Origin: a bacterium
GTDB taxonomy: Bacteria > Zhuqueibacterota > Zhuqueibacteria > Oceanimicrobiales > Oceanimicrobiaceae
Assembly: GCA_046757165.1 (NCBI GenBank)
Contig: JBHHXT010000036.1
Location: forward strand, 1-34,738
Length of the DNA stretch: 34,738 nucleotides
Direction: 5' to 3'
Shown: in pieces, positions 12,558 to 33,338 of the stretch
How the letters are laid out: every line of letters begins with the position of its first letter
Position numbering within the stretch: position 1 is the first letter of the stretch
The notes under the pieces: generated by a model
What the model was told of the DNA's origin: nothing
Seen by the model: only the letters and a program-made list of their open reading frames with translations
The model's database searches: none
Program-made: the position numbers and the translations under genes

Positions 12558-12740
12558 AAAACAATATTCGCTTATTGCTATTGTACATAAACGGCGATGT
12601 TTTGCGGAGAGGTGAGAAAAGAAAAACGACTATTTTCGCTTTTGATGAAAATTCTTTCGATGTGCGGATTTATTCCTTATATTCTCTCCACCAGGGGGCA
12701 ACAACAGAATGTTGGTGAGATCATAGAGAAAGGGGCGTGT

Positions 12741-16497: not shown

Positions 16498-17025
16498 ATG
16501 AGCTTGACAAGGCATACACCAGGGGTTTTTGCTTCCACTATTTTGCTTGTGGCCTTACTTTTGTGCCCAAACCGGGAGGTGCTTAGCCAGGACCGGTACA
16601 TTGTCGGTGCCGGGGATCAGGAGCAAGGCCTTCAGATGATTGTGCATGTCATCGGAGAGGTGAGGAAGCCAGGCGAGTATCGTGTTCTTGATGGCACCAA
16701 CATCCTGGAGCTGTTTTCAAAAGCTGGAGGCCCGACTCAATTCTCAAAGCTCAGCGGCGTCACCATCAGCAGGATTAGGCATGGCGTCGCGGGCAACGGC
16801 CGCAACGGGAATGGCCGCCTCAAAACAGGGAACGACATCATCAGAGTAAACATAACTCATTATCTCAAGAAGACGAATGCAGCGCCACCGCCCCAGTTGA
16901 AACCAGGCGATGTTGTCTTCGTGCCGCGAAATGGGTGGAGCAAATGGAGGAACATCGCGACGATTGTTCGAGACGTCTCGGTAGGTATCAGCCTCTATTT
17001 GTTGTATCTGCGTGCCAGAGACTAA
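16498..17025 (+). CDS. SLBB-domain polysaccharide export protein (short Wza/OPX-like)
   Basis: Signal peptide; VHVIGEVRKPGEY..ELFSKAGG..LKPGDVVFVP; C-terminal amphipathic/hydrophobic helix; immediately upstream of wzc. Confidence 0.8.
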   Translation: MSLTRHTPGVFASTILLVALLLCPNREVLSQDRYIVGAGDQEQGLQMIVHVIGEVRKPGEYRVLDGTNILELFSKAGGPTQFSKLSGVTISRIRHGVAGNGRNGNGRLKTGNDIIRVNITHYLKKTNAAPPPQLKPGDVVFVPRNGWSKWRNIATIVRDVSVGISLYLLYLRARD

Positions 17026-17064
17026 CGTGCTTCCCAGCACACATTGCCTTAAGGAGTAGCAGTA

Positions 17065-19410
17065 ATGCAAAACAACGATAGCCAGCAAATTGTTGCGCTA
17101 ATCTCGAAGGTTTTCAATCGAAGGAAGCGGTTGGTGCTGTTTAGCATCGTCGGTATTCTCATCCCCATCGTCTTTTACAACCAGACCGCGACCCCGACCT
17201 ACCAGGCTTCAACCAGCCTGATTTTTGAGGAATTGACGAATCCGATCGCAAACTACAGTTATGACCTGTCACGTGAGATTCTGATTCAGAATCGTCTGGA
17301 AGAGATCAAGAGTCTGGCCTTCTCGGAGGACATCGTGAAGGCCCTGCCGGTCGAGACTTATGACAATTATCCGGTGCCGGAAGATGCCGGGCCGGATTTC
17401 GATCGTTTCGGCTACCTGAGTCAAAAGATCAATCGAAGCGTCAATGCGGTCTCGATTCGCGGGTCGAATATCATTCAAATTGTCGTTGAGAGCGATGATC
17501 CGGCGCTGTGCCGCGACCTTGCCAATACGGCGGCCCAGGTGTTTCAGGACAGAATGTACAAGGTTAAACACGAAGGCGTCAGAGGGGTTCGTTCCTTCAT
17601 CGAAGAGCAGCTCACACGAGCGAAGCGACAGTTGAACCGGACAGAGGAAGAGCTGAGACAATTCAAAGAGCATAACAAGATCATCTCCATCGATAAGGAA
17701 TCCCAGGGGTTGCTCAGGAGAAGAACAGAAGCCGAGGTGCTCTACAATTCGGTCAGGTCAAGCCGCGAATCTGTTCAGGAACGGTTGAAAACGATCGAGA
17801 AAAAGCTGCATCTGCAAAAGCAGGATTTGGTGCCTTCCATTACAGACATCGCGACCCCCTATACCCAGAAACTGAAAGAGAAGCTGATCATGCTGCAGGG
17901 CCAGTTTACAGACTTGAGGTTGCAAGGCTACGGGCTCGAGCATCCCAAGATGACGCAACTGCAGAATGAGATTAGCGAAACGAAGAAAAATTTGACCAGT
18001 GAGGCACTAAAAGTCGCCAAGAGTGAGAATATCATCGATCCTATCACTCAGATCGAGAAATCCGTGAACGATTCCTATACTCTGCAGGTCGAACTCGAAG
18101 CGCTAAAGGCGCAGGAAGCGGCCCTGAGACGGACCATCGACGATTATGAAACCAAGCTGGCCACGCTTCCAGAAAAGGAGTATGTCCTGGCAAGGCTGAC
18201 CAGGGAAAAGGAAGTCACGGAGCAAAATTACATGATGCTCTTGAAAAAACATGAGGAGGCCAGAATCTCCGAAGCGGAAAAGCTTGCCAGCATCAGAATC
18301 ATAGATACGGCGCGCAAGCCAGAGGAGCCCATCGCCCCGCGCAAGAAAGTCAACTTTGCTATCGGTTTGGTCCTGGGTCTGTTGGTCGGGTTTGGGCTGG
18401 CCTTTATCAAGGAAGTCAGCCATAACTCGCTGGATTCCACCGAGGAGCTGGAACGGGTGACCGGCTGGCATGTCCTGGCGGCAATACCCGTGATCGAGAA
18501 TTCCACCGGCAGCAAAATGGGCTTGCACAGCCGCGCCACCAATGGCAGCTCGAAAAGCCCAATGATCAAACGGAGTCTCATTACGGGCAGTAACCCAAAG
18601 ACGGGCATCGCCGAAACCTACAGAATGCTGCGCACCAATTTGCAGTTTCTGGGCCTGGGCCAGAAGTTCAAGACCATTCTGGTCACCAGTGTCGGACCGG
18701 ACGAGGGCAAGTCAACGACCATGACCAACCTTGGAATTACTCTGGCCAAGATGGAGCAAAAAGTCTTGATTGTGGATTCAGATTTGAGAAAACCTCAGCT
18801 CCACGCTCTTTTCGACCTGGACAAAGAGCCGGGGTTGAGCGACCTGTTGGTTTATCACAGCGCGATGAAGGAAGATTTCTCTCCCATGGAAAATGAGTCA
18901 CCGCTTCTGGGCGATGGCTTCAAAGGTCAGGAGCTGGGAGACCTGGTCGATAATTTCTCTGACTTCGTGATGAACGACAACTTCTTGTCCAAAATCAAGA
19001 ACCTTCCCGGCCTAAGCAATCTGAATATCCTCAACAGTTCTCTGATCGAAGCCGTTCAGTCAACGCATGTTGAGAATCTGAAGGTGTTGACAAGTGGCAA
19101 GCAGTTGAAGAACCCCAGCGAAACCATAGCCACGGTTTCTCTGAAGGCTTTGTTAGACGAACTCAAGAACAAATTCAACGTCGTGCTCATCGATTCGGCG
19201 CCGCTGCTGCTGGTTCCGGAAACCATGATGATCTCCTCCCTGGTTGACGGCGTCATTTTCGTCGTAGATTCCCAACGGTACAACCAGGAGATGTTGATGA
19301 AAGCGAAGAATCTGCTACAAAAGGCCAACGCCAATGTCATCGGCGCCGTGCTGAACAACATCGAAATCAATAACAGGGAAAAGAACAATTATTACTATTA
19401 CGAAGCCTGA
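17065..19410 (+). CDS. wzc: Polysaccharide co-polymerase / tyrosine autokinase (Wzc/GumC-type)
   Basis: Two TM segments flanking a coiled coil; PEEPIAPRK; ETYRMLRTNL; Walker A GPDEGKST; VDSDLRKP; VLIDSAP; C-terminal YYYY cluster. Confidence 0.93.
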   Translation: MQNNDSQQIVALISKVFNRRKRLVLFSIVGILIPIVFYNQTATPTYQASTSLIFEELTNPIANYSYDLSREILIQNRLEEIKSLAFSEDIVKALPVETYDNYPVPEDAGPDFDRFGYLSQKINRSVNAVSIRGSNIIQIVVESDDPALCRDLANTAAQVFQDRMYKVKHEGVRGVRSFIEEQLTRAKRQLNRTEEELRQFKEHNKIISIDKESQGLLRRRTEAEVLYNSVRSSRESVQERLKTIEKKLHLQKQDLVPSITDIATPYTQKLKEKLIMLQGQFTDLRLQGYGLEHPKMTQLQNEISETKKNLTSEALKVAKSENIIDPITQIEKSVNDSYTLQVELEALKAQEAALRRTIDDYETKLATLPEKEYVLARLTREKEVTEQNYMMLLKKHEEARISEAEKLASIRIIDTARKPEEPIAPRKKVNFAIGLVLGLLVGFGLAFIKEVSHNSLDSTEELERVTGWHVLAAIPVIENSTGSKMGLHSRATNGSSKSPMIKRSLITGSNPKTGIAETYRMLRTNLQFLGLGQKFKTILVTSVGPDEGKSTTMTNLGITLAKMEQKVLIVDSDLRKPQLHALFDLDKEPGLSDLLVYHSAMKEDFSPMENESPLLGDGFKGQELGDLVDNFSDFVMNDNFLSKIKNLPGLSNLNILNSSLIEAVQSTHVENLKVLTSGKQLKNPSETIATVSLKALLDELKNKFNVVLIDSAPLLLVPETMMISSLVDGVIFVVDSQRYNQEMLMKAKNLLQKANANVIGAVLNNIEINNREKNNYYYYEA

Positions 19411-19527
19411 TGTTGATGGTGGTGAAATCGGGGTTTCCCAATAGAGCTGATTCTCAACGAAAATGACAAATTCTGCCCCGCATCGTACTCATTTGAGGAA
19501 ACGGGTTTATCAAGAGCGTAAAGCAAC

Positions 19528-20199
19528 ATGGATATTTCACCCTGGTTAGTCATCGCTTTATCTAGCATAATCTTGCTGTCTGTCTTCTTGGTGTTGGCAA
19601 AAAAGAAGGATTCTGGAAGCGGGGTCAGGACGGTTATGTCGGAGCTGCAGCTCGGGGCCGTGCCGACCTATCGCAGCACGTTGGATAAGCTATCCAATGA
19701 GCTGGCGCGGGTTCGGCGCTACAACCGGCCGCTGTCCATGGTTGTCCTGAGGCTAGAAAGCGACCAACTCCTCATCGATCTGAAACGCAGCCTGGTGGCG
19801 GAAACGGGCAACGGTGGCGTCGAGTCCTATAACCAGGTGATGCAAACCATTCAATTGGTCTTCTCTCTGGTGGGGTCCATCCTGAAAGAGTCGTTGCGCG
19901 AAAGTGATATCGCCACCTACGATGTCTCCAACAATCAATACATCATCATGCTGCCAGAGTCCAACCGGGAGCAGGCTGCCCTGACCGTGACAAGGCTCAA
20001 GAGACTTCTGTTCAAGCGAACGGCCGGTCACCTGGTGGCGGGCCTCGCCGAGTTCCCAACCGACGGACTGATCATCGACGACCTGGTGAAGGGCGCGGTT
20101 GCGGCCTGCAACAAGACCAATGGCGAGCTCCTGGTCAACAAAGGGGCCAAAGAGACAGAACTGACATCAGAGCAAGACAAAGATGATGAAGAGTCGTAG
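19528..20199 (+). CDS. Membrane-anchored degenerate GGDEF-domain protein retaining an RxxD I-site
   Basis: N-terminal TM; ELARVRRYNRPLSMVVL..LRESDIATYDVSNNQYIIMLPE..GLAEFPTDG..DDLV fits the GGDEF fold, but the signature is replaced by VSNNQ. Confidence 0.75.
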   Translation: MDISPWLVIALSSIILLSVFLVLAKKKDSGSGVRTVMSELQLGAVPTYRSTLDKLSNELARVRRYNRPLSMVVLRLESDQLLIDLKRSLVAETGNGGVESYNQVMQTIQLVFSLVGSILKESLRESDIATYDVSNNQYIIMLPESNREQAALTVTRLKRLLFKRTAGHLVAGLAEFPTDGLIIDDLVKGAVAACNKTNGELLVNKGAKETELTSEQDKDDEES

Positions 20200-20962
20200 A
20201 GTGCACTCTTTTGTTAGGGAGAGTAGCAAAACGGAGAGCAGGATAGTGAAGATAGAAAGTGCAAGAATAAGCCGGTCGGCGACCGCGGCGGCCATTGCCC
20301 TGGAACGCCCAAAAAGCAGGCCATGGTATGAGCATTATGCAGACAAGAGAATCCTCAGCCTGGAGAGCTACTTCAAGCTCAAGCGCGTTTTTGATATTGC
20401 ATTCTGCGTCGTCAGCCTGCCGGTGCTGGTACCGGTCATGCTCCTCTGCTATCTGGCGATCAAACTAGATTCTCCCGGCCCGGTGTTTTTCTTCCAAGAA
20501 AGGACAGGGCGAGGCGGGAAGCGGTTCAAGATGCATAAATTGCGCACCATGGTGAAGAACGCTGAAGAGCTGAAAGAAAAGTACATGCACTTGAACGAGC
20601 TCACCTACCCAGACTTCAAGATCAGTAACGATCCACGCATCACACGCGTGGGTCGGTTCCTGAGAAAAACCAGTCTGGATGAGCTGCCGCAGGTTTTCAA
20701 TGTCTTGCGGGGAGACATGACCCTGGTCGGACCACGCCCGACCTCGTTCAGCGCCAACACCTATCGACTCTGGCATACAGCGCGTCTGGAGGTCAAACCC
20801 GGCATGACTGGCCTGTGGCAAGTTTCCGGGCGCAATGAACTTGATTTTGACGACCGGTTGCGGCTTGACATCGCCTACCTGCGCAACCAGTGTTTTGGCC
20901 TGGATTTCCAGATTCTTCTACGAACCGTCGGATCAGTCTTCCATGGCCGTGGGGCAAATTGA
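20183..20962 (+). CDS. Priming polyprenyl-phosphate sugar-1-phosphate transferase (Bac_transf)
   Basis: KRVFDI, SPGPVFFFQERTG, KLRTM, DPRITRVGRFLRKTSLDELPQ, GDMTLVGPRP, KPGMTGLWQVSGR. Confidence 0.95.
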   Translation: MMKSRRVHSFVRESSKTESRIVKIESARISRSATAAAIALERPKSRPWYEHYADKRILSLESYFKLKRVFDIAFCVVSLPVLVPVMLLCYLAIKLDSPGPVFFFQERTGRGGKRFKMHKLRTMVKNAEELKEKYMHLNELTYPDFKISNDPRITRVGRFLRKTSLDELPQVFNVLRGDMTLVGPRPTSFSANTYRLWHTARLEVKPGMTGLWQVSGRNELDFDDRLRLDIAYLRNQCFGLDFQILLRTVGSVFHGRGAN

Positions 20963-22158
20963 TGGTCTTGTTTTTGGAGATATCATTCGGGCTGGCTGTT
21001 GCGGCTCTGGTTTATTCATACGGGGGCTTTTCCCTTCTTCTGCTACTGATTGCCAAACTTCTCAATCGGCAAGTCAAGAAAGGCGACTTCACGCCCAGGG
21101 TCACGGTCATTATTGCGGCATACAACGAGCAGCACAGTATCGCGGCCAAACTGGATAACGTCCTTGGCCTCGACTATCCCAGCCAACACCTGGAGGTGAT
21201 CGTGGCTTCCGACGGTTCTGATGACGCCACCAAGAGAATTGCTTCCGCGTATGTGCACAAAGGGGTCAAGTTTCTGGATCTGCCGAGACGGGGAAAGGTT
21301 TTTGCGCTCAACGATGCGGTCAACGAGGCGCAGGGCGAAATTCTGGTTTTTTCAGATGCCAATACACTTTTTCTGCCGCAAGCTCTGCGGATGCTGGTGC
21401 GCAACTTCGCCGATCCGCAAGTCGGAGGGGTTTGCGGCAATCAGGAACACATTGCCCTCGAGGATGGCGACAACAGCAGCAAAGGGGAACATCTTTACTG
21501 GGCGTACGACAAATGGCTGAAGACCATGGAGAGTCTGACCGGCAGCATCGTTTCCGCCGACGGCGCGATCTACGCCATCCGGCGCACTCTCTACCGCACC
21601 CCGAGCCAAACGGATGTGACCGATGACTTCGCGATTTCCACGGCCGTCATCGAGCAGGGCTACCGGTTGGTTTTTGAGAGTGACGCTCTCGCGCATGAGA
21701 AAGCCTCAACGAAAGCCGAGAATGAATTCATCCGTAAGGTGCGAATTATGAACCGCGGCCTGCGCGGCGTCATGATGCGCAAGAAGCTCCTGAACCCTTT
21801 GAAGTATGGTGTCTATTCTCTCATTTTGTTTTCACATAAGGTGCTGCGACGCCTGGTTCCCTTTATGCTGATTTGGCTGCTGGCGACCAGCTTGCTGCTT
21901 GCGGTAAGCAGTCCTTTCTTCAGATGGGTTTCGGCGGCTCAGCTCCTCTTTTATCTTTTGGCGTTCCTGGGCTACGTGCTGCGAAACACGCAAGTCGGCC
22001 ACTCGAAGATCCTGTACGTGCCATTCTTTTTTTGCCTGGCGAATGCGGCCGCCTTTGTTGCCATCCTGAAATTGTTGCGCGGCAAACGAATCGAATTCTG
22101 GCAGCCGCATCGGGAGAGTCTTGATGAGAAGAAACTGGTTAAGACTGAGGTGCTTTGA
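20962..22158 (+). CDS. Glycosyltransferase family 2 with C-terminal TM helices
   Basis: VTVIIAAYNE, VASDGSDD, RGKVFALN, FSDAN, TDDF, RKVRI. ATG 20962 overlaps the upstream stop (TGATG). Confidence 0.92.
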   Translation: MVLFLEISFGLAVAALVYSYGGFSLLLLLIAKLLNRQVKKGDFTPRVTVIIAAYNEQHSIAAKLDNVLGLDYPSQHLEVIVASDGSDDATKRIASAYVHKGVKFLDLPRRGKVFALNDAVNEAQGEILVFSDANTLFLPQALRMLVRNFADPQVGGVCGNQEHIALEDGDNSSKGEHLYWAYDKWLKTMESLTGSIVSADGAIYAIRRTLYRTPSQTDVTDDFAISTAVIEQGYRLVFESDALAHEKASTKAENEFIRKVRIMNRGLRGVMMRKKLLNPLKYGVYSLILFSHKVLRRLVPFMLIWLLATSLLLAVSSPFFRWVSAAQLLFYLLAFLGYVLRNTQVGHSKILYVPFFFCLANAAAFVAILKLLRGKRIEFWQPHRESLDEKKLVKTEVL

Positions 22159-22210: not shown

Positions 22211-23173
22211 ATGCGAGTTCTTATTGCCAGCTCAATCGATGAGCGTGCGATTACAAAAATGCGAGAAAAGCACGATGTCACGTGCCATTTTAATGCGACC
22301 GCAGAGATATTGAAGGAGGTCATCCCGGACCGCGAGGTTTTGATCTTTCGCAGCGGCGTGCATATCGCTGCCGATATCATGGCTTGCGCGCCGGAGTTGA
22401 AGTTGATCATCCGCGCCGGGTGTGGTCTGGACAACGTCGATGTCGAGTACGCCCGCGGGCGGGGCATCGAGCTGCATACCATACCCCAGCCCGCCTCCTT
22501 TTCCGTCTCAGAAATGACATTTGCGCTCATGCTGGGCGTGGCGCGTCGAATCCTGGAGGCGGATGAATCCAGGCGTGCCGGACACTGGATCAAAAACCAG
22601 CTTAACGGACGCCTGCTCCATGGCAAAACGCTCGGGATTATCGGCATGGGCAACATCGGCAGCCGGGTCGGCCAACTTGGCGTCTCTTTTGGCATGCGTG
22701 TGTTAGGATGTGTCGAGCACCCCTCTCCGGCGCGCGCCGAGGCCTTCAAGTTGAAGAATTTGGAGCTCACCACCTTCGAGCGGGTGGTTTCCGAGGCGGA
22801 TTTTCTGACCGTGCACGTGCCCAGGAAAGCATCGACGCGCAATCTCGTCAATGCCGGGGCCCTGGCAAAGATGAAGCAGGACTCGATCCTGGTCAACATC
22901 GCCCGCGGCGGCGTTCTGGATGAGAAGGCGCTCTACCATGAGCTGACGCACGGCACCCGTCTTCTCGGGGCTGCCCTGGATGTGCACGAACAAGAAGGCG
23001 AGGGCAAGCTCTCGCCGTTCAGAGAGATGAAAAACGTCATTTTGACCCCTCATATTGGCTCGATGACCGTCGATACCTATAAGGACATGGGCCAGCGGAT
23101 TGTGAAAATTTTTGACGACTTTGTTGAGAAGTCCGAAAGCCGTTCAGCGCAGGAAACGCTAATCGCCGGCTGA
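22211..23173 (+). CDS. D-isomer-specific 2-hydroxyacid dehydrogenase (SerA-like, no ACT domain); candidate phosphonopyruvate reductase
   Basis: RAGCGLDNVD, GIIGMGNIG Rossmann motif, NIARGG, LDVHEQE, TPHIG catalytic Arg/Glu/His; adjacent to pepM. Confidence 0.85.
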   Translation: MRVLIASSIDERAITKMREKHDVTCHFNATAEILKEVIPDREVLIFRSGVHIAADIMACAPELKLIIRAGCGLDNVDVEYARGRGIELHTIPQPASFSVSEMTFALMLGVARRILEADESRRAGHWIKNQLNGRLLHGKTLGIIGMGNIGSRVGQLGVSFGMRVLGCVEHPSPARAEAFKLKNLELTTFERVVSEADFLTVHVPRKASTRNLVNAGALAKMKQDSILVNIARGGVLDEKALYHELTHGTRLLGAALDVHEQEGEGKLSPFREMKNVILTPHIGSMTVDTYKDMGQRIVKIFDDFVEKSESRSAQETLIAG

Positions 23174-23203: not shown

Positions 23204-23234
23204 ACCTTCCAGCGCCGCTGGAAGGTTTTCTTAT
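23204..23234 (+). terminator. Hairpin with U-tract between the dehydrogenase and pepM
   Basis: accttccagc-gcc-gctggaaggt followed by tttcttat. Confidence 0.45.
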
Positions 23235-23330: not shown

Positions 23331-24215
23331 ATGAATAAGGCAACCCAAAAAAGAGAACTGTTGCGACAGGGGCTGACCGGAGACAAGCCGATCACTGCGG
23401 TCGGAGCACACGACGCCATGAGCGCACAAATGATCGATACTGACGGTTTCGAGGCCGTGTGGGTGAGCGGCTTTGGTGTTTCGACCATGGCCTATGCGGT
23501 TCCGGACGCCAACCTGGTCACTATGACCGAGGCCCTGGACGCGGCCGTGCGCATGGATGCCGCCATCACCATTCCGGTGGTCGCAGATTGTGACAACGGC
23601 TTTGGCGGCCTGGCCAATGTCGTTCGGACGGTAAGAGCGTACGAGCGTGCCGGTATTGCCGGCATTTGCATCGAGGACAATCATTTCCCCAAGCGCAACA
23701 GCCTGTACCTGGGTAATTCCAAACGCGAGTTGATTCCGCTGGAAGAACAGGCCCGCCGCATCCGTGCGGGCAAGGATGCCCAGGAATCGGATGAGTTCGT
23801 CTTCATCGCACGCGTCGAGTCTCTCATCGCGGGCCACGGCGTGGCAGACGCGCTGCGACGGGCCGATGCCTATGTCAGGGCCGGCGCGGACGCCATTCTG
23901 ATTCACTCCAAAGACAAAACGTTGGGCGAGATAGAAGGGTTTCTGGCAGAGTGGCAGGGAGGCGCCCCACTCGTTTGTGTGCCGACGCTCTTCCCCGATT
24001 TTACCGTGCAAGAGCTGCATGAGAAAGGCTTCCAGATGATCATCCTGGCCAATCAACTGATGCGCGCTTCGGTCAAGGCCATGGAAGAGACACTCGCTAC
24101 CCTCAAACGCGAGCGCAAGGCCGCCGCGGTCGACGGCTCCATCGCACCGGTCAATTACATCTTCGATCTGGTGAAAACCAGGGAGCTGATCGCTTTAGAA
24201 GACGAGATAAAATAG
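23331..24215 (+). CDS. pepM: Phosphoenolpyruvate mutase (C-P bond formation), stand-alone, variant motif EDNHFPKRNS
   Basis: ICL/PEPM fold: WVSGFGVS, PDAN, VADCDNGFG, IEDNHFPKRNSL, FIARVESLIAG, ILIHSK, VPT, ILANQLMRAS. The PKxNS loop and IHS motif are PepM-type, not lyase-type (KCGH). Confidence 0.85.
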   Translation: MNKATQKRELLRQGLTGDKPITAVGAHDAMSAQMIDTDGFEAVWVSGFGVSTMAYAVPDANLVTMTEALDAAVRMDAAITIPVVADCDNGFGGLANVVRTVRAYERAGIAGICIEDNHFPKRNSLYLGNSKRELIPLEEQARRIRAGKDAQESDEFVFIARVESLIAGHGVADALRRADAYVRAGADAILIHSKDKTLGEIEGFLAEWQGGAPLVCVPTLFPDFTVQELHEKGFQMIILANQLMRASVKAMEETLATLKRERKAAAVDGSIAPVNYIFDLVKTRELIALEDEIK

Positions 24216-24272: not shown

Positions 24273-24941
24273 ATGGACATGACCAATATTCTGAAAATCG
24301 ATCTGAGTCCGGCTCAGGTGATTCTGAGCTTCCTCATCGCGTTTGCGCTGGGGTTTATGTGGGCGACCGTATACCGCAAGACGCACAGCGGCGTTGCTTA
24401 CACCCGGTCGTTTTTCATGACTCTGCTGCTGATTCCATCCATCGTTGCCATGGTGATGATGGCCATCGGCAGCAACGTTGCCCTGTCACTCGGCCTGGTT
24501 GGTTCGCTTTCAGTGATTCGTTTCAGAACGGTGATCAAAGACACCAAGGACATGACCTTTTTGTTTCTCTCGATTGGCATCGGTCTATGCTGTGGCGCGA
24601 ATGCGTGGATGGTCGCCATCTCCGGAACCGTCATCATCTCGCTGATCACGATCATCATGTCCAGGGTGGGACACGACCAGGCGGGATCGGCTGACTACAT
24701 TCTCATCTTCCGCTCCTATGAGAAAGAGCCATGGGAAAAAATCAACCCGGAAGCGCAATCCCTGCTTTCCTGGAAACAGCTCCGCGGAGCCACAGACATC
24801 GACCAGGGAAAGGATTTCGAGTACACCTACAGCGTTCGCCTGGCCTCGAAGGCCACGCCTGAACGCATCGTCAGCGAGCTGAGCAATGGCGTCATTCGCC
24901 AGGTTACCTTGATCACTCCGGAGAACCACCTTGAGCTCTGA
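24273..24941 (+). CDS. DUF4956-family membrane protein
   Basis: Several TM helices with signature SLGLVGSLSVIRFRTVIKDTKDMTFLFLSIGIGLCCG and a small soluble C-terminal domain. Confidence 0.85.
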   Translation: MDMTNILKIDLSPAQVILSFLIAFALGFMWATVYRKTHSGVAYTRSFFMTLLLIPSIVAMVMMAIGSNVALSLGLVGSLSVIRFRTVIKDTKDMTFLFLSIGIGLCCGANAWMVAISGTVIISLITIIMSRVGHDQAGSADYILIFRSYEKEPWEKINPEAQSLLSWKQLRGATDIDQGKDFEYTYSVRLASKATPERIVSELSNGVIRQVTLITPENHLEL

Positions 24942-25725
24942 GGTCGCCAGCGATGGCGGTACGGCGCTCACCAGCCGGATGATCCTGTTCCGCCGCCGCG
25001 AAATCAAATACCTGATCGATAGAACGACTCGAACTGCCCTGACCCGGGACTTGCAGGCGTTCATGCGGCCGGATGCCCATGCGAACAGTGCCGACGGCTA
25101 CATCGTGCGCAGCCTGTACTTCGATACCACGGATTACTTGGCTTACCATGAGAAGCTTGCAGGCACGGCTGCACGCCACAAGCTGCGCATCCGAGCCTAT
25201 GGCGAGGACCCGAGACAGGCCGCAATTACCAGGCTGGAGGTCAAGTCCCGTTTCTTGAGCTTCATTCACAAAATAACGGTCGACATCCCTGTGACCCAAT
25301 ACCCGCTGCTCGAGCCGGCCATCCTGGGCAAAACCTTGCCGCCAAACGACCTTCTTGACAACAGCGACATCTCGAAAGAGTTTTTTCGAATTCAGCGCCA
25401 GTACAATATGGTGCCGAAGGTGCTCTTGCAATACCGGCGGCAGGCGTTTGAGCGAGCGGAACTGAAACGGGTGCGCGTCAATTTCGACGACCAACTGGTG
25501 GCCTCCAGAAACCTGGCGCTCCTCGATCCTCTGGTCGCGCCGCGGAGCTTGCTCAAGTACGGCACCTCTATCTTTGAAATCAAAGTGGACGGCGACATGC
25601 CTTTCTGGCTGCACCAATTGATCAGCAAATACAACCTGCAGGATCAGGCGTTCAGCAAGTTTACCAACGCCATCAGGAGCGAAGCCAGGTTTTCGACCTT
25701 TCACCGTGCCAGCGATTTGAACTGA
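24931..25725 (+). CDS. VTC (polyphosphate polymerase / triphosphate tunnel metalloenzyme) domain protein
   Basis: RREIKY, VRSLYFDT, RHKLRIRAY, LEVKSR, YRRQAF, RVNFD, IFEIK, FSKF. Alternative start ATG 24979. Confidence 0.88.
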   Translation: MSSEVASDGGTALTSRMILFRRREIKYLIDRTTRTALTRDLQAFMRPDAHANSADGYIVRSLYFDTTDYLAYHEKLAGTAARHKLRIRAYGEDPRQAAITRLEVKSRFLSFIHKITVDIPVTQYPLLEPAILGKTLPPNDLLDNSDISKEFFRIQRQYNMVPKVLLQYRRQAFERAELKRVRVNFDDQLVASRNLALLDPLVAPRSLLKYGTSIFEIKVDGDMPFWLHQLISKYNLQDQAFSKFTNAIRSEARFSTFHRASDLN

Positions 25726-25737
25726 GACAGGGACGCC

Positions 25738-28700
25738 GTGCTCAAGCTAAAGAATAAGAAACGGGTCAAGAAAGTTCTCCGCCGGGCTCACAGTCCGGTG
25801 CGCTGGATTTGGCCCAAAATGTCCGATGCGCTCATCGGTATCTTCTGCTTTTTCCTGATCATTTTTGCCCTGTTGACCTATTCGACGCGCTTGTCCGAGT
25901 ACACCAGCAAGTTGGTGACGGGGAACAAATACCTCTCTCTGCTCGATGGCTTTTTCAATCCTTTTCGCAACAAACACCTGCTGCTGAAATCCGGCCTGCC
26001 CATTTATGACTTGAAAATCAAACATCAGCGGTATGCCATTATCGAAGACGTTATCAAGAAGGCGAAGAAGCAGGGTTGGATGAGTGATGACCTCAAGGTT
26101 TGGGCCAATGCACAGTTTATCCATGATGGCGAAATGTACAATGTGAAAGTGCGCGTGCGTGGCGACCTGCCGCGGCACTGGAGCGGGCCAAAACGGTCCT
26201 ACCGCATCAAGTTCGGCAAACGCAAGATCATCGGAGTCGATGGGCAGGTACGCGAAGAACCCATCTATTTCAACAGAACACGACAGATCAACTTGATCGT
26301 GCCCATCGACCGGGAGTTTATTCTGGCGAAATTCATCAACGAGTTGATGCAGGAACGGGGGGTGTTGGTGCCGCGCGATGATTTTGTCATTCTCCGCATC
26401 AACGGCGTCATTCAGGGGCTCTATTATCAGGTGGAGCATTTCGACAAGCCGTTGATGGCCTTCCGACGCCGGCCGGAGACCACGGTCTTTGCCCAAAACG
26501 ACCGCGCGAAACATTTCGAGCAGTATACAAAATACGGCACGCCTGCCACCTCAGATGCCAATTTTGAGATGGGCACGCTGCGCCGTTTGATCGACCGCAA
26601 CGGCGAGCTCGGCATGCAGGCGATGAAGGTGTTGTTCGAGTTTGTGCAAGACCCGAGGCCGGAAAAGTTCAGAAGAGCCCGCGCGGTCCTGGATTGGGAG
26701 AAGTACTTGACCTTCCGGGTCATCACCACGCTCTGCAACACCAACCACGTTCGCTTTGGCACCGACAATCTCCGCTTGTACTACGACCCCAGTCGCGGCC
26801 TGCTCGAGCCTATCCCTTGGGACGCGCATCTGCTGCGAATGCCGAAGGAGCCCGGCACGATCGATTTCTGGAACAACAAGGGGCCGGACGCGCTGCAGCG
26901 CGCCACTTTGTTGGACCCGGAGCTGAGATTGCAGCGCAACAGGATTCTCTGGTCGTTCATCGGCGATGGCGGAGATAGCCTGATGGCCAAATACACCAAA
27001 CTGCATGACAAGATTCGGCCCTTTGCCTGGGCAGACGTGTTGACGACGCCCATTCAAGGCCACAAGATGGATCAACACAAGAAGAACTTCGATTACAATG
27101 TGCGTCGCGCTTTCAAAGTCTTGAATAATTCCAACTGCAATTTTACCTATCGCCTCGAGGCCCCGGACCGCGCGGCCCTGGAGATGAATCTGCTCAATTT
27201 TAGCGGCGTGGAATGGCAAAGTGTCCAGCTCCGCGATTCTTTACTGTTTGTAGGCCGGTACGACCTTTATGAAGACCAAAACGACAACGGTCAATTGGAC
27301 GCAGAAGACCCCCTTGTGGCCACACAGAATGCCGACCACGACTGGTCCATCCGGTTCGAAATTGGCAAGCGCGTTTTTCCGCACCTCGAATATCGCGGTG
27401 ATTTTATCGCCGGGCGATACTGGGAGTTCTTTGACACCAAAACAAAACGGGCGCGCTATTTTCTGGTGGGCAAGTTGGCGCCGGAAAATCGTCACCCCAT
27501 CGTCTGGAGCCCGCCTGAAATTGCTGTGGCCGCGAAGAATCTGGTGACAGACTACCAGATCCCGTCTGCATTCATCAGCCAGCAGCAGCCGTTGCCGGAC
27601 AACATGACCGGCATCACGGCTTACGATGACTCGGACCCGTTCGACCTGGATGCGCAATTCTACACGCGCGAGGCGTTTCTTGCAAAGCATCCGCCGTTCG
27701 TGGCGAGCAAGGAGTCGGAGGGCGTTGAACTCCGCGGCGCGATTGAGATTTCGGAGTCGGTCATCATTCCGAAGGGGGTGCCCCTGCTCATCCGGCCCGG
27801 AGCGGACATTACGTTAAAACCCGGGGCGAACATCTTGATCTACAGCGGCCTCACCTGTATTGGAACGCCGCAAGATCGAATCCGGATTCACGGGGACGAA
27901 TCCGGGTTTCCCTTTGGCAGCGTAGCCGTTGTGCGTCCGCAAGCAAAGGTGGTGGTCAGATACACCGACTTCAGCGACGGTGGCCAGGCGCAAATCAATG
28001 GCATTCTGTTCACGGGCGGGTTTGCCGTGCACGAGGGAGACCTCGAGCTGGAGCACTGCACCTTCGATAAAATGCAAAGCGAAGACGGGCTGAACCTCAA
28101 GAACGGCCACATCGTGATGCGCCACTGCCGCTTTACCGCCAATGACAGCGATGCGGTCGATATCGACTTTGGAACCGGCATTGTTGAAAACTGTGAATTC
28201 CGAAATATCCACGGCGATGGCCTGGACATTTCCGGCTCCACCCTGCAGGTTTCGAGTTGTGTGTTTGAAAATGTCGTCGATAAGGGATTCAGCGTCGGGG
28301 AAAACTCCTCTCCGACCATTATCAACAGCCTGTTCAAGGGGTGTGACATTGGCATTTCTGCCAAGGACCTGTCCTTTGTCAGGGCTGCGAACTGCACGTT
28401 CGTCGAGAACAGGCTGGCAATTGAAGCCAAACGCAAAAAGCCGATGTTTGGTGGCGGGAGCGGCGAGGTGGTCAACTGTGTTTTCTCCGGCAATCAGGAG
28501 CTGCTAACGGAAGATTATTTTTCGAAAGGCAGGATGATAATCAAATCTTCCCTGAGTGATGTAACCACCGACTGGGAAGCAAGTAGAACGGCGAAGATTC
28601 AGTTTCTGGCTCCCGAGCAAAACAACTATGTGTTACATTCACAATCAATGCCAAGCGATGGATTTGCGATGACTTATCCCGAGTGGTTAAGTGGCCAGGG

Positions 28701-28755
28701 AAACGGCTTTTCGTTGCAACAACCCGGGATTTATAGTCTCTCGACAAATCGATAG
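25738..28755 (+). CDS. Membrane-anchored CotH-family kinase fused to a right-handed parallel beta-helix domain (1005 aa)
   Basis: N-terminal basic stretch plus TM; KVRVRGD..KRSYRIKF, GLYYQVEHFDK, DWEKYL..NTNH..DNLRLYYDP..EPIPWD; EF-hand-like DQNDNGQLDAED; C-terminal repeats DGLNLK/DAVDIDF/DGLDIS/DKGFSVGE/IGISAKD. Confidence 0.8.
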   Translation: MLKLKNKKRVKKVLRRAHSPVRWIWPKMSDALIGIFCFFLIIFALLTYSTRLSEYTSKLVTGNKYLSLLDGFFNPFRNKHLLLKSGLPIYDLKIKHQRYAIIEDVIKKAKKQGWMSDDLKVWANAQFIHDGEMYNVKVRVRGDLPRHWSGPKRSYRIKFGKRKIIGVDGQVREEPIYFNRTRQINLIVPIDREFILAKFINELMQERGVLVPRDDFVILRINGVIQGLYYQVEHFDKPLMAFRRRPETTVFAQNDRAKHFEQYTKYGTPATSDANFEMGTLRRLIDRNGELGMQAMKVLFEFVQDPRPEKFRRARAVLDWEKYLTFRVITTLCNTNHVRFGTDNLRLYYDPSRGLLEPIPWDAHLLRMPKEPGTIDFWNNKGPDALQRATLLDPELRLQRNRILWSFIGDGGDSLMAKYTKLHDKIRPFAWADVLTTPIQGHKMDQHKKNFDYNVRRAFKVLNNSNCNFTYRLEAPDRAALEMNLLNFSGVEWQSVQLRDSLLFVGRYDLYEDQNDNGQLDAEDPLVATQNADHDWSIRFEIGKRVFPHLEYRGDFIAGRYWEFFDTKTKRARYFLVGKLAPENRHPIVWSPPEIAVAAKNLVTDYQIPSAFISQQQPLPDNMTGITAYDDSDPFDLDAQFYTREAFLAKHPPFVASKESEGVELRGAIEISESVIIPKGVPLLIRPGADITLKPGANILIYSGLTCIGTPQDRIRIHGDESGFPFGSVAVVRPQAKVVVRYTDFSDGGQAQINGILFTGGFAVHEGDLELEHCTFDKMQSEDGLNLKNGHIVMRHCRFTANDSDAVDIDFGTGIVENCEFRNIHGDGLDISGSTLQVSSCVFENVVDKGFSVGENSSPTIINSLFKGCDIGISAKDLSFVRAANCTFVENRLAIEAKRKKPMFGGGSGEVVNCVFSGNQELLTEDYFSKGRMIIKSSLSDVTTDWEASRTAKIQFLAPEQNNYVLHSQSMPSDGFAMTYPEWLSGQGNGFSLQQPGIYSLSTNR

Positions 28756-28836
28756 AGCATCGTAAGATCGACAACCTGTAAACGGATTTGACGAATTTCC
28801 CTCGCGGGTGATCATTCATTGAGGCGGGAGAACGCT

Positions 28837-30117
28837 ATGAACAATATCAAGAGCGGTGGGAGCAAACCTTATGCAGTCGTGGTCGGTTTAGATTGCATGA
28901 CCGGTTTGCAGACGGTTCGGATTCTGGCACAGCACGGCGTGTCGGTTATCGCCATCGCCAAAAACCCGAACCACTTCACGTGTTACACCAAAGTTTGCGA
29001 GAAGATTCTCATTGCTGACACCTCCAGCGACGAGTTCATAGAAACCCTGGAGGGTCTGTCCGCGACGCTTGACAGCAAGGCGGTTCTGTTTCCCTGCACG
29101 GACATGAGCGTTCTTCAGATCTCGCGCAGCCGCGAACGGCTGGCACAGGGCTACCACATCGCGCTTCCGGAGTCCGGAGTGGTCGAGATGCTCATGGACA
29201 AGATCGCGTTCATCAAGTTTGCGAAAAATGAAGGGCTGCCCATTCCGACGACCTTCTTTCTCGAAAAACGGCAGGATTTGGAAGAAGCCGCCGACCAGCT
29301 CTCCTACCCGTGCATCTTGAAGCCGCCGATGAAATCACCGCGGTGGGAGAAGAATACGAAGAAGAAAGTCTACAAAATTACGGACAAAGCCGACCTCTTC
29401 CAGACTTATGATATGTGCTCAGAGTGGGCGGATATTCTGATGGTACAGGACTGCGTGCAAGGCACGGACGCCAATTTGTATTCCTGCAACTGCTATTTCG
29501 ACCGGAATGTCGAGCCCCTGGTGAGCTTCATTGCGCGCAAATTGCGCCAGTGGCCGCCCGAGATTGGCACGAGCTGTCTGGGAGAGGAAGTGTTCAATGA
29601 TGTTGTGCTGGAAACAAGCCTGGCGCTCTTCCGCAAAGTCGGGTATCACGGGCTTGGCTACGTTGAAATGAAAAAAGACCAGCGCACCGGCAAGCATTTC
29701 ATCATCGAGCCGAACATCGGACGGCCGACAGGCCGTTCTGCGATTGCGGAAGCGGGGGGCGTGGAACTGCTCTACACCAAGTACTGTGACCTGGTTGGCT
29801 TGCCCCTGCCCGAAAACCGGGTGCAGAGGTACACGGGGGTCAAATGGATCTACCTGCGCCGTGATCTGCAGTCGGCCTATTTCTACTGGCGGCGAGGTGA
29901 TTTGAGCCTGCTGGACTGGTGGCGCACGCTGCGTGGCCGCAAAGGGTACGCGGTGTTCTCCATCTCAGACCCGGTGCCCTTCCTGGCTGACTTTTTCAAC
30001 AAGCTTGCAGACCGGTTTTTTTCACGCAAGACAGCGACCGTGCCCGGGGCAGCAAGAAGCGCGACGCAATCTCCGCCAGCTAAGCAGGAAGAAGAAAAAT
30101 CCGAGGCGGCTGTATGA
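28837..30117 (+). CDS. ATP-grasp carboxylate-amine ligase (D-aspartate-ligase-like)
   Basis: LFPCTD, LMDKIAF..LPIPTT, YPCILKP, RKLRQWP..G, GYVEMKKD..GKHFIIEPN (ExN motif), SISDPVPF. ATG 28837 follows gggag. Confidence 0.85.
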   Translation: MNNIKSGGSKPYAVVVGLDCMTGLQTVRILAQHGVSVIAIAKNPNHFTCYTKVCEKILIADTSSDEFIETLEGLSATLDSKAVLFPCTDMSVLQISRSRERLAQGYHIALPESGVVEMLMDKIAFIKFAKNEGLPIPTTFFLEKRQDLEEAADQLSYPCILKPPMKSPRWEKNTKKKVYKITDKADLFQTYDMCSEWADILMVQDCVQGTDANLYSCNCYFDRNVEPLVSFIARKLRQWPPEIGTSCLGEEVFNDVVLETSLALFRKVGYHGLGYVEMKKDQRTGKHFIIEPNIGRPTGRSAIAEAGGVELLYTKYCDLVGLPLPENRVQRYTGVKWIYLRRDLQSAYFYWRRGDLSLLDWWRTLRGRKGYAVFSISDPVPFLADFFNKLADRFFSRKTATVPGAARSATQSPPAKQEEEKSEAAV

Positions 30118-31319
30118 GCAAACGCAACGAATCCCGGCGTGAGCTACGCGCCACCGATGCGATTATCGAGTATGACATCCATGGCCTGGTCGGTATTCGA
30201 CTGGTGAACCCCACCGAAAAAGATGCGGCTGCGGTCGCACGGCAGCTTGGACCCTTGCGTGGCGATCTGGTGCGTGAGCCGGACATCATCGTGCGCTTTG
30301 TGCGGCACCTGCCGCTCGACGATCTGCATTATCTGGGCCTGAACAAAGTCGGGTATGATCAGAACGGATTCTACATCCTGCGCAGCAGCAAGAAAGATGT
30401 GCGCGTGAGACTCGCTTTTGATCAGATCGGGGAAAGGGTGGAGATCCTCTGTCAAAGTGGAGTGAAATCCGTGCCGCACTTGCTGGCCATTCTCAACCTG
30501 ATGCTTTTGAAAAAGGACGTGGTTGCTTTGCATGCTTCTGCCTTCGTTTTTGACGGCACCGGCATCATCGTCACCGGTTGGGCAAAGGGCGGCAAGACCG
30601 AGGCGCTGCTCTCCTTTGCCGCGCACGGTGGAGAGTACGTCGGCGATGAGTGGATCTACCTGAGTGCGGACGGCGAAAGGATGTACGGCATCCCGGAGAA
30701 CATCCGGCTCTGGGACTGGCATCTGGACAACCTGCCCCATTTGAAAGGTAAGCTCAATTTCGAGAAGAAAGCGCTGTTTGGCACCGTCCACGCGCTGGAC
30801 CGGATGCAGAGACGGCTGCCAGAAGCGGGCCTGGGCAACGCGATGCCGCTGAAATTTCTGCGCGAAGCCATGCCAGCACTCCGGCGGCAGCTCAACGTGC
30901 AATTGCCGCCACAGGTGATCTTTGAAAAATGTTCAGAAACATTTTCTGCCCGGCCAGACAGGGTGTTTATGCTCATCAGCCACGCAGGCCCCGAGTATTC
31001 TGTCGAGCCGGTCGAGGCGAGCGAAATTGCCCGGCGCATGATTGCGTCGCTGCAGTTCGAGCTCATGCCCTTCATGGAAAGCTACACCGCCTTCAAGTTT
31101 GCCTTTCCTGAGAAGGCGAGCGAGTTTGTGGAAACCGCACACGAGTGGCAATCCGAGATTCTTTCCCGTGCGCTGGAAAACAAACAAGCCTACGTGGTCA
31201 AGCACCCCTACCCCCTATCATTCGAGGCCTTGTATGATGCGATGCGCCCGTTTTGCCAGGTGCGGTCAAATGGCACTGCGGCAGAAGATACGCAGAATCA
31301 ACGGCTTGTTGCTAATTAG
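30114..31319 (+). CDS. HPr-kinase-like P-loop NTPase/kinase of unknown substrate
   Basis: LHASAF..GIIVTGWAKGGKT (Walker A), YVGDEW at the twin-acidic position; ATGA overlap with the ATP-grasp gene. Confidence 0.65.
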   Translation: MSKRNESRRELRATDAIIEYDIHGLVGIRLVNPTEKDAAAVARQLGPLRGDLVREPDIIVRFVRHLPLDDLHYLGLNKVGYDQNGFYILRSSKKDVRVRLAFDQIGERVEILCQSGVKSVPHLLAILNLMLLKKDVVALHASAFVFDGTGIIVTGWAKGGKTEALLSFAAHGGEYVGDEWIYLSADGERMYGIPENIRLWDWHLDNLPHLKGKLNFEKKALFGTVHALDRMQRRLPEAGLGNAMPLKFLREAMPALRRQLNVQLPPQVIFEKCSETFSARPDRVFMLISHAGPEYSVEPVEASEIARRMIASLQFELMPFMESYTAFKFAFPEKASEFVETAHEWQSEILSRALENKQAYVVKHPYPLSFEALYDAMRPFCQVRSNGTAAEDTQNQRLVAN

Positions 31320-31437: not shown

Positions 31438-32067
31438 ATGCATCGGAGATCTGCTTTGCAAAACTTTGATAACAACGGTATCTCTAGATTGGCTCAGGAA
31501 ATCGAGCTCAGCATCGCAACCAAGAAACGTGTGTTGCGAGACGGGATGTCGCGTATCCATGAAATCACTCTGATTGTAAGAACGGCATTGGAAAATGGCC
31601 ACAAGCTCTTGCTCTTTGGCAACGGTGGCAGCGCTGCGGACTCGCAACACATCGCCGCTGAGTTCGTCAGCAAGTTCAATATGGAACGCAATGCGCTTCC
31701 GGCCATTGCCTTGACGACGGACACATCGATTCTCACCGCGATTGCAAACGACTACGACTTCAAGTTTGTTTTCGCCCGGCAGATCGAGGCGTTAGGGCAG
31801 CCTGGCGATGTGGCTTTGGGGATTAGTACAAGCGGAAATTCACCCAACGTCATCAAGGGTGTCGAGACGGCGAAAGAAAAGGGGCTGACCACGGTCGGCT
31901 TCACAGGACAAAACGGCGGCAAGCTCAAGCATGCCGTCGACTACTGCTTTCGAGTGCCGTCGGACAGCACCCCTCGCATTCAGGAAGTTCACATCACCGT
32001 GGCCCACGCTATCTGCGGCGTGATCGAGAAAGAGCTCTGCTCGGAAGCGGTCACCACGTCCTTGTAA
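31438..32067 (+). CDS. gmhA: D-sedoheptulose-7-phosphate isomerase
   Basis: GNGGSAADSQHIAAEF, LTTDTSILTAIANDY, FARQIEALG, ISTSGNSPN, TPRIQEVHI. Confidence 0.95.
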   Translation: MHRRSALQNFDNNGISRLAQEIELSIATKKRVLRDGMSRIHEITLIVRTALENGHKLLLFGNGGSAADSQHIAAEFVSKFNMERNALPAIALTTDTSILTAIANDYDFKFVFARQIEALGQPGDVALGISTSGNSPNVIKGVETAKEKGLTTVGFTGQNGGKLKHAVDYCFRVPSDSTPRIQEVHITVAHAICGVIEKELCSEAVTTSL

Positions 32068-32114
32068 ACAAAGACCATAAAGAATACTTAAAGAATATAG
32101 CTTGAATACGCTGC

Positions 32115-33140
32115 ATGCCTCATAGTCACTCACTGAGAATGGCCGGTTTTACCACCTTATTGGTCTGTTTGACGTTATTTCTGCTCAGGTTGGTTGTCCA
32201 TCTCCCCAGGCAATCGCTCTTGCTGCTCACGGGCAGCTTCTTTCTGATAGCGATTCCGTTCTGGATGGCAAGATGGGGGAGAAGCGTGGGCCGCGCGCAG
32301 ATTGCGCAGGTTCTCTTGCTGTGGAGCCTCTTAACCGGAGTGTTCTTGTTTAGTGTCTACCGGGTGGACAGGGCCGGCTGGAACTGGTTCAGGCTGACCG
32401 GATATGACGTCACGCTGGCTGAGCATCACCCCCGGGCTGCCAACTTGTCGATCGAAGAGTTCATCCGACGGCATGAGATGTTTTCTGTTGCGCCGGATGG
32501 CAGCAACAGAGTTCTCCTGCCGAGAGGCGAACATGAGATTGACGCGACCATCGTCGTTCCGAAAGGCGTGAGGCTGGTTATCGAGCCCGGCGCCGTCTTG
32601 CGCTTTGGCGCGGGCTGTTCGTTGATTTCTTACAGCCCCATCAGCGCCATCGGCACGGCGCAGGAAGCCATCATTTTCACCGCAAAGCGCAAGTTGCTCA
32701 AGTGGGGCGTCGTCGGCGTGGTGCAAACTGAAAAGTCGTATTTTCATCGCGTTAGATTCGAGCACGCCCGAAGTGCCAGGGTGAACGGCATCATTTTTTT
32801 TGCCGGCCTTTCCGCTATTGAGACGGACATTGAAATTACCGATAGTCAGTTTATAGACATGTTCGGTAAAGATGCGGTGAATATCAGATATGCCGATGCC
32901 CTGGTGCGGGATAACTTGTTTGAGAATGCAACCAAAGACGGCATAGATATGGACGGCGGTACGGGTGAAATCAGCCGGAATGTGTTCATGAATTGCCAGG
33001 ACGAAGGCATCGACCTGAGCGAGAACTTCGCCATCAGGGTTTTTGACAACAAGATCCAGGACCGTCGAGGGGGCCGGATCGAGGCGGAAAACAACCTCTC
33101 GGAGATCAGGGCCGCGAATTCGTTCGGATATTTGCCTTAG
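32115..33140 (+). CDS. Membrane-anchored right-handed beta-helix protein, paralogous to the C-terminal domain of the CotH fusion
   Basis: About 3 N-terminal TMs; IVVPKGVRLVIEPGA, VNGIIFFAG, DAVNI, DGIDMDGGTG, EGIDLS align by eye with the CotH protein C-terminus. Confidence 0.75.
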   Translation: MPHSHSLRMAGFTTLLVCLTLFLLRLVVHLPRQSLLLLTGSFFLIAIPFWMARWGRSVGRAQIAQVLLLWSLLTGVFLFSVYRVDRAGWNWFRLTGYDVTLAEHHPRAANLSIEEFIRRHEMFSVAPDGSNRVLLPRGEHEIDATIVVPKGVRLVIEPGAVLRFGAGCSLISYSPISAIGTAQEAIIFTAKRKLLKWGVVGVVQTEKSYFHRVRFEHARSARVNGIIFFAGLSAIETDIEITDSQFIDMFGKDAVNIRYADALVRDNLFENATKDGIDMDGGTGEISRNVFMNCQDEGIDLSENFAIRVFDNKIQDRRGGRIEAENNLSEIRAANSFGYLP

Positions 33141-33192
33141 GCGCTTGGCGCTTGGTGCCGTGCTATCGACAATTTGTTGTCGATGAATTATT

Positions 33193-33275
33193 GTCATTTG
33201 CCCTGCGGGCGTCATTGAGCAAGCAAGGACCAAATGACGTCGTAGGGCAAATGACGGCGCGAAGCGCTAAATGAC
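33193..33275. repeat. Inverted repeat built from GTCATT / AAATGAC units
   Basis: gtcatttgccctgcgggcgtcattg (33193-33217) versus caaatgacgtcgtagggcaaatgac (33231-33255); a third AAATGAC ends at 33275. Confidence 0.6.
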
Positions 33276-33304
33276 TTTTTTCGCAGCGAAGTCTGCGAAA
33301 AAAA
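33276..33304. terminator. Hairpin with T-run 5' and A-run 3' (terminator-like)
   Basis: ttttttcgcag-cgaagt-ctgcgaaaaaaa; the T- and A-runs are part of the stem, so it lacks a 3' U-tract on either strand. Confidence 0.35.
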
Positions 33305-33338
33305 TTAGACTACTTAGATGACGGGAAGGGTTTCAATT

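Follow-up and report, generated by a model that had tools for sequence, protein, structure and literature searches.

Introduction

Phosphoenolpyruvate mutase (PepM) works at an equilibrium that favours phosphoenolpyruvate (PEP) more than 500-fold, so that a pulling step is needed (PMC12871164). One known pulling enzyme is a 2-hydroxyacid dehydrogenase that gives phosphonolactate (PMC12871164, PMC8942020), and VlpB has been used as a phosphonopyruvate reductase (PMC11867202). In PepM catalysis D58, D85, D87 and E114 serve the metal, and R159 and H190, possibly together with N122 and S123, serve the phosphonyl group; K116 is not among the catalytic residues named in the accessible part of the same review, whose authors also doubt that N122T, to which the difference between PepM and phosphonopyruvate hydrolase (PPH) is mostly ascribed, is the whole reason for that difference (PMC7916636).

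Both estimates of phosphonate producers and natural-product mining depend on a single sequence motif. The exact EDK-X5-NS motif is required in PMC6697681, PMC8942020 and PMC12723261, and a further study tolerates two mismatches to it, but only where Ppd or MpnS lies no more than 5 kb away (10.1101/2020.11.04.368217). Here we examine a PEP mutase-family enzyme that reads EDN-X5-NS, encoded in a contig of 34,738 nucleotides (JBHHXT010000036.1, hereafter the window). An original prediction, made from the window's letters, held that it represents a functional PepM clade invisible to strict motif screens. Comparing its sequence, neighbours and relatives, we argue that the EDN enzyme is a conserved, likely isofunctional variant of PepM, despite lacking the motif, scoring below the profile cut-off and falling outside the canonical clade.

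Results

The predicted mutase gene lies within a polysaccharide export locus

The features of the locus are collected in Table 1. The order of the polysaccharide genes upstream of the mutase is the same in related loci, and the nearest named loci come from genomes of candidate division KSB1 (84–87%). The sequencing runs that contain the window's DNA carry the label hydrothermal vent metagenome. The genome to which the window belongs (99.98% complete) has no phosphonopyruvate decarboxylase, no second PepM and no PhnJ.

Table 1. Features of the mutase locus, with positions in the window
Feature	Position	Strand	Basis
Polysaccharide export/assembly genes: SLBB/Wza-like, Wzc, 223-aa protein, priming sugar transferase, GT2	16498..22158	+	
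D-2-hydroxyacid dehydrogenase (SerA/VlpB-like), predicted phosphonopyruvate reductase	22211..23173	+	PF02826 + PF00389
Terminator-like hairpin in the reductase-mutase gap, 10 pairs + T-run	23204..23226	+	region z-score -1.41
EDN-type PEP mutase-family enzyme, stand-alone, 294 aa	23331..24215	+	PF13714, 197.5 bits; intact ORF
DCDNG: Mg-site D86 + D88, then N89 (mostly T in EDK enzymes); second clade signature	23586..23600	+	
EDNHFPKRNS: Mg-site Glu115, non-canonical Asn117 (AAT 23679-23681), start of gating loop with K121, N123, S124	23673..23702	+	
H192-S-K194: phosphonyl-binding His; K194 aligned to PPH Arg188	23904..23912	+	
DUF4956, VTC and CotH genes, after the mutase	24273..28755	+	family scan
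ATP-grasp carboxylate-amine-ligase-like protein, frequent cassette member	28819..30117	+	
HprK-related kinase-like protein	30114..31319	+	TIGR04355, weak; Atlas look-alikes
Phosphoheptose-isomerase-like protein, beta-helix protein, GT4 glycosyltransferase; end of locus	31438..34547	+	

The reductase forms a family of its own (support 100/99), apart from three paralogs in the same genome. The genome's best PGDH match lies on another contig (C4) beside an aminotransferase and reaches 426 bits, versus 260 bits for the cassette dehydrogenase, which is thus a specialised paralog. The hairpin in the gap that follows could, judged from its sequence, lower expression of the mutase relative to the reductase; a similar one occurs only in the related locus L166, that is, in two of seven aligned regions, so it is not conserved, and the window gave zero matches to Rfam.

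The DUF4956-VTC-CotH insertion is confined to the closest relatives (L001-L003, L005, L073, L076) and is missing from most other EDN loci; in farther KSB1 loci a phytase-family gene (L159:8383-9516) occupies its place, so that phosphate-handling modules alternate there. KSB1 loci also keep a membrane-anchored protein of 223 aa (window 19528-20199) with a weak GGDEF-like match, encoded behind wzc and ahead of the priming sugar transferase. The upstream part of the window encodes three TonB-dependent receptors with carboxypeptidase-regulatory-like N-terminal domains (16-9146); the isocitrate lyase, a true lyase-family member, and malate synthase A of the glyoxylate shunt, with a divergent XRE/RamB-like regulator (9394-14252); and, on the reverse strand, a 184-aa protein with GroES-like matches over two stretches (14262-14816), homologs of which stand in the equivalent place in L001-L003.

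Asn117 is shared by a whole clade

The codons of the motif, GAG GAC AAT CAT TTC CCC AAG CGC AAC AGC, encode E115-D-N117-H-F-P-K121-R-N123-S124. Re-reading these 30 bases in the intact frame returned the peptide originally reported, and the other residues named with it were all found (P-D59, D86-x-D88, IAR161VE, IH192S and K121-x-N123-S-L125). A sequencing error at Asn117 had been raised as a concern. Contigs from three of four runs span the codon with zero differences, the first run (X1) being possibly the source of the window, X2 and X3 representing further samples from the same study, and X4 having no cover at the codon. Around the motif, the X2 and X3 contigs depart from the window only at 23633 and 23635.

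The companion concern, that close homologs might all carry EDK, proved groundless: among the best 120 of 1616 homologs (68–100% identity), EDN-X5-NS was found in 120/120 and EDK-X5-NS in 0/120. We therefore regard both readings of Asn117, as a mistake in sequencing and as a loss of function private to this genome, as refuted. Nothing within the window's genome speaks for such a loss, which could draw only on relatives, the gene being deleted in L166 and frameshifted in the L060 assembly, and it is contradicted both by the identical codon in the contigs of three of four runs and by the homologs. The EDN change is a signature of the whole clade. The frameshift in L060 (L027, G156:C709) falls right after the motif of an EDN-clade gene and may reflect either decay or a faulty assembly.

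Active-site residues separate the enzyme from hydrolases and lyases

Aligned with mussel PepM (1m1b), the window enzyme can be compared at D58, D85, D87, E114, K116, K120, N122, S123, L124, R159 and H190. Its N117 aligns with K116, and the equivalents of the Mg-site residues D58/D85/D87/E114 and of the phosphonyl-binding R159/H190 are all present. K120 and L124 of PepM have, we presume, roles in the gating loop. Among the best 120 of 1616 homologs, D59, D86, D88, E115, K121, N123, S124, L125 and R161 are unchanged in 120/120 and H192 in 119/120; the gating loop K-x-N-S-L, with Asn and not Thr, is likewise invariant, as are D116, N117, N89 and L220. Position 194 is K in 72, R in 47 and C in one of the same 120, which makes His-Ser-Lys versus His-Ser-Arg an unreliable marker of mutase or hydrolase within the clade.

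The comparison motifs given in the original prediction were both seen in our data. PPH reads EDKTFPKDTS (PKxTS) and lyase-family loci read EDQ..K[KR]CGH in the sequences examined; the window enzyme has N123 and K194 in place of Thr118 and Arg188 of PPH, and the K[KR]CGH loop with the catalytic Cys of the PrpB and isocitrate lyases is absent from it. Since PPH shares the EDK lysine with PepM, a change of this lysine does not separate the two, and the lysine is likely the mark of one family branch (EDK PepMs together with PPH) rather than a catalytic requirement. The raw association between positions 89 and 117 is strong (K+T in 63, neither in 54, discordant in 16 of 133 rows), the rows being phylogenetically non-independent. 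Counted independently of phylogeny, only two pairs exist (median p of 1), and compensation between N89 and N117 is not supported.

Neither fold nor profile score could assign the enzyme to PepM or PPH. The structure model (pLDDT 89.4, below 50 at loop residues 123-125) was matched best by Foldseek to the PepM 5unc (TM 0.93), with mussel PepM and PPH next (0.89–0.92), so the fold does not tell the two apart; by sequence the nearest solved relatives are 5unc (Streptomyces platensis PepM), 2dua (Variovorax PPH) and 1m1b (Mytilus PepM), with lyases far behind. The enzyme scores 270.3 bits on TIGR02320 (PepM; cut-off 319.55) and 217.8 on TIGR02321 (PPH; cut-off 374.4), below both. The score was discarded as a PepM classifier because a true PPH reaches 276.5 on TIGR02320 and an EDK enzyme adjoining a decarboxylase (L038) also stays under the cut-off, at 293.5.

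The clade is phylogenetically distinct from PPH and from lyases

We built a FastTree tree of 137 rows and an IQ-TREE tree of 43 rows from loci, annotated plasmid enzymes and representatives of 50%-identity clusters, rooted on four lyase-family loci; as PepM and PPH references we used loci annotated on plasmids and genomes, not the assayed enzymes themselves, and neither the 43-row tree nor the AU tests include L065 (EDKQFPKTNS, which groups with PepM). In the 43-row tree, PPH is nested within the EDK enzymes, and the two make up a single clade (99/96). A separate clade (100/98) contains the EDN-X5-NS enzymes; it falls outside the first, in the company of further non-EDK groups, and the non-lyase branch that holds these enzymes is split from lyases at 100/100. 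Forcing EDN enzymes together with PPH was rejected by the AU test (p=0.0005), as was grouping them with EDK PepMs to the exclusion of PPH and other variants (p=0.0004). The placement called for in the original prediction thus puts the clade with neither lyases nor hydrolases and, judged by sequence, the window enzyme is neither a PPH nor a lyase. We found no characterized enzyme outside the EDK clade, inside which all characterized PepMs fall; with the EDN clade outside it, the tree alone does not bracket PepM function.

These data bear directly on a catabolic, PPH-like role, in which the dehydrogenase would oxidize phosphonolactate and the EDN enzyme would cleave the C-P bond. Such a role could explain the PPH-like stretches YAVPDAN and SGF, the Arg that 47 of the best 120 of 1616 homologs have where PPH has R188, the automatic naming of one homolog (P0026) as phosphonopyruvate hydrolase, and structure scores that are much the same for PPH and for mussel PepM. 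We nevertheless consider it very unlikely, given that N123, and not T, is found in all of these 120 homologs and that a shared clade with PPH is rejected. In addition, a PalB-type aminotransferase homolog occurs in 0 of the 25 EDN loci with 3 kb of sequence on both sides, whereas three PPH-type loci have an aminotransferase and an ABC transporter, and the enzyme that replaces the EDN mutase in its slot (see below) is canonical PepM, not PPH.

A predicted reductase and polysaccharide genes accompany the enzyme

We compared 112 loci from genomes and metagenomes, 94 of which have EDN-X5-NS; loci in the counts that follow are related rather than independent, and in a few cases two collections contain identical DNA. 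Of the EDN loci, 62 extend at least 1 kb upstream of the mutase; a 2-hydroxyacid dehydrogenase is its immediate upstream neighbour in 57 of these and is missing in the other five. The ATP-grasp gene is present in 35 of 42 EDN loci with at least 3 kb downstream. In the 25 that have 3 kb of flank to either side, the HprK-like kinase was found in 19 and homologs of the window's polysaccharide genes in 18. Homologs of the decarboxylase and of PntC were found in 0 of these 25, and a decarboxylase in 0 of all 94 EDN loci, many of them short.

The cassette is not obligatory, since the reductase also occurs without an adjoining mutase (L166 and L167, one such genome being G160, 78% complete) and the ATP-grasp gene without mutase or reductase in the stretch fetched (L170-L174). 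Given the latter loci, a role of the ATP-grasp protein, for which no solved relative was found at E<=0.01, as a dedicated phosphonate ligase is not supported.

The product of a mutase and reductase could alternatively enter a small molecule, a lipid or a protein modification instead of a polysaccharide. Valinophos-type clusters do pair a mutase with a dehydrogenase for small molecules, a PntC-type nucleotidyltransferase is found neither in the well-flanked EDN loci nor in the window's genome (E<=1e-8), and no transfer enzyme was recognized. Against this, polysaccharide homologs of the window's type flank most of the well-flanked loci, and flippase, glycosyltransferase, MBOAT and nucleotide-sugar genes are present in loci where a canonical PepM takes the slot. 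On balance we regard a destination other than polysaccharide as unlikely.

Canonical PepM replaces the EDN enzyme in the same cassette

In a survey of 167 genomes of the phylum, including the window's own, 21 matched TIGR02320 at E<=1e-40 and yielded 23 loci, 11 with strict EDK and 12 with EDN enzymes (one frameshifted). Six of the 11 EDK enzymes lie between a dehydrogenase of the same family (53–56% identical to the window's) and an ATP-grasp protein (56–65%); of the other five, four have a decarboxylase behind them and the fifth has neither within reach. The EDK-X5-NS enzymes in the slot score over the TIGR02320 cut-off and have the dehydrogenase directly ahead. In L158 the order is sugar transferase, GT2, reductase, EDK PepM, ATP-grasp and HprK, as in the EDN loci L159-L162, where one extra gene follows the mutase; its neighbours are 52–65% identical to those of the window and its mutase 39%. 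In one actinobacterial class (400 drawn genomes plus the centre), EDN enzymes were found in three drawn genomes, EDK enzymes behind the same dehydrogenase family in three, and an EDK enzyme with a decarboxylase in one. Canonical EDK PepM thus occupies the slot behind the dehydrogenase in nine genomes of two phyla (six plus three).

One reductase family, with identical active-site motifs, partners both mutase types, and in the reductase tree the partners of EDK enzymes form two clades among those of EDN enzymes. With two mutase-less loci removed beforehand, the AU test rejected monophyly of the EDN-cassette reductases (p=0.010) and of the EDK-cassette reductases (p=0.036); as both are rejected, the mutase must have been exchanged at least twice. 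A lower value (p=2e-5) obtained with the mutase-less loci included was confounded and was discarded. One of these loci, L166, may record such an event: of the EDN gene only a stretch that fuses the first codons to the last is left (L166:7499-7616, G052:C9), with the remaining operon intact, and the same genome has a canonical EDK PepM (L165) beside a polysaccharide-type ABC-transporter ATPase and a kinase-like gene. This single case fits an EDN-EDK exchange, with an assembly artefact being possible.

The simplest reading of these sequence comparisons is that phosphonopyruvate is the 2-oxo acid made by both mutase types, and we consider the exchange with canonical PepM the strongest evidence for the predicted mutase function. 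The EDN enzyme might instead carry out another reaction on a pyruvate-like 2-oxo acid (as a decarboxylase, a lyase or in another group transfer of the isocitrate lyase superfamily), with a dehydrogenase that reduces that product too. The clade does lie outside all characterized mutases, with N89, N117 and L220 as invariant residues of its own (in the best 120 of 1616 homologs), and two genomes (G149 and G150) keep an EDN and an EDK cassette together, as might be expected of distinct products. Those two cassettes, however, lie in separate glycan loci, which accounts for the retention of both, the Cys-Gly-His loop of lyases is missing, and the partner reductases belong to the same family with the same motifs for both mutase types. 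A different reaction therefore seems to us distinctly unlikely.

Motif filters overlook the clade

EDK-X5-NS is absent from the window protein, and the relaxed filter of the bioRxiv study (10.1101/2020.11.04.368217), as described in the part available, excludes the EDN clade as far as its Ppd criterion goes, as no Ppd is near. The invisibility to strict screens that was originally proposed therefore extends to four published filters, as far as the accessible descriptions go, and to the curated NCBI cut-off. Databases are less uniform: the JGI name 'phosphoenolpyruvate phosphomutase' is on about 47 of the best 120 of 1616 homologs (manual count), the others having PPH or family-only names, so surveys by name may include the clade. 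The 150 clusters (50% identity) nearest to the query, a sample biased towards it and no census, comprise 92 with the strict motif, 56 without it and two with gaps.

An under-count of phosphonate producers, which had been expected from this invisibility, held in part, with function read from gene context. Among the 167 genomes of this phylum, 11 are carriers by the strict motif and 21 once EDN enzymes are added (20 if the frameshifted copy is left aside); the effect is small or nil in two actinobacterial classes, with four strict versus three EDN among 400 drawn genomes of one and EDN in 0 of 400 drawn genomes of the other. Phosphonate producers are therefore likely under-counted in some groups. 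One named species with an EDN-clade enzyme is Blastococcus colisei (WP_142027783.1); Blastococcus has no entry in the supplement of PMC12723261. In the literature, with subscription journals thinly covered, we found no description of the EDN variant, of K116 mutagenesis or of a phosphonolactate glycan.

A related group reads EDN-X5-CS, with two EDS or EDA members and Cys at the Asn122 equivalent (L021-L026, L030, L144, L146-L152); it is mostly fused to a nucleotidyltransferase and is also lost to strict filters. Three of its loci (L023, L025, L026) have a decarboxylase-like gene and PntC downstream. This decarboxylase lends weak support, being in two pieces in G168, each below the TIGR03297 cut-off; it may be a sulfopyruvate-decarboxylase-like pair. 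The fusion to PF12804 was present in 2/2 members scanned. Fusion of Ppm to PF12804 is almost confined to motif-bearing Ppm (883 of 905 fusions; PMC6697681), and its presence here points to a link of the entire non-EDK radiation with phosphonates.

Discussion

The reading we favour for this locus has three steps. The EDN enzyme would rearrange PEP into phosphonopyruvate; the upstream dehydrogenase would reduce phosphonopyruvate to phosphonolactate and so pull the mutase; and phosphonolactate would then be transferred onto the polysaccharide exported by Wza/Wzc, perhaps after activation of its carboxylate as an acyl-phosphate by the ATP-grasp protein, which is the least certain step. The neighbouring pulling enzyme expected of a PepM would be supplied by the 2-hydroxyacid dehydrogenase family upstream. 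From the active site and the slot exchange, mutase activity is highly probable; the action of the reductase on phosphonopyruvate is probable, and transfer to a glycan is somewhat favoured. The explanation as a whole, with surface-polysaccharide decoration as its end, we hold to be reasonably probable.

More tentatively, and with slightly less than even confidence, we propose that EDK is one derived branch of the C-P-forming enzymes and that the non-EDK radiation (EDN-X5-NS, EDN-X5-CS and others) consists of active mutases. Part of it would decorate surface polysaccharides with phosphonolactate, using neither a decarboxylase nor a nucleotidyltransferase, in KSB1, Actinomycetota and other mostly uncultured bacteria. 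If the EDN clade is active, the motif on which screens depend follows ancestry and not chemistry. The cassette predicts a surface glycan that bears phosphonolactate which, if true, would be an undescribed modification as well as an uncounted environmental source of phosphonate.

Set beside the known systems, the window enzyme shares the superfamily fold and the Mg site with methylisocitrate lyase PrpB and isocitrate lyase, but it is without their EDQ..K[KR]CGH loop, is 27–29% identical to them and is separated from them by a 100/100 branch. PPH/PalA (TIGR02321; Variovorax 2dua) is closer, with the same fold (TM 0.90), 39% identity and the YAVPDAN and SGF stretches in common; the window enzyme differs from it in Asn for Thr118 and Lys for Arg188, in a profile score far below the family cut-off, in the absence of the aminotransferase/transporter operon around it and in the rejection of a shared clade. 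With PepM (TIGR02320; Mytilus edulis 1m1b/1pym, Streptomyces platensis 5unc) it has in common the fold (TM 0.92–0.93), the Mg ligands, the R159/H190 equivalents, the K-x-N-S-L gating loop and His-Ser-Lys, and PepM takes the same cassette slot in other genomes. It differs from PepM in having N for K116 and N for T88, in an identity of 37–39%, in a score under the HMM cut-off, in its place outside the EDK clade and in being without a decarboxylase or nucleotidyltransferase partner. The closest parallel in gene content is valinophos biosynthesis, to whose VlpB we liken the reductase by family and description: there, as here, according to the accessible parts of the reports, a PF02826 dehydrogenase is paired with a mutase (VlpA), no Ppd is involved and an ATP-grasp protein lies nearby (PMC8942020, PMC11867202). 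Family scans recognized no vlpCDE-like genes in the window and, unlike VlpA, the window mutase is non-canonical and is set in the polysaccharide export loci of mostly uncultured phyla.
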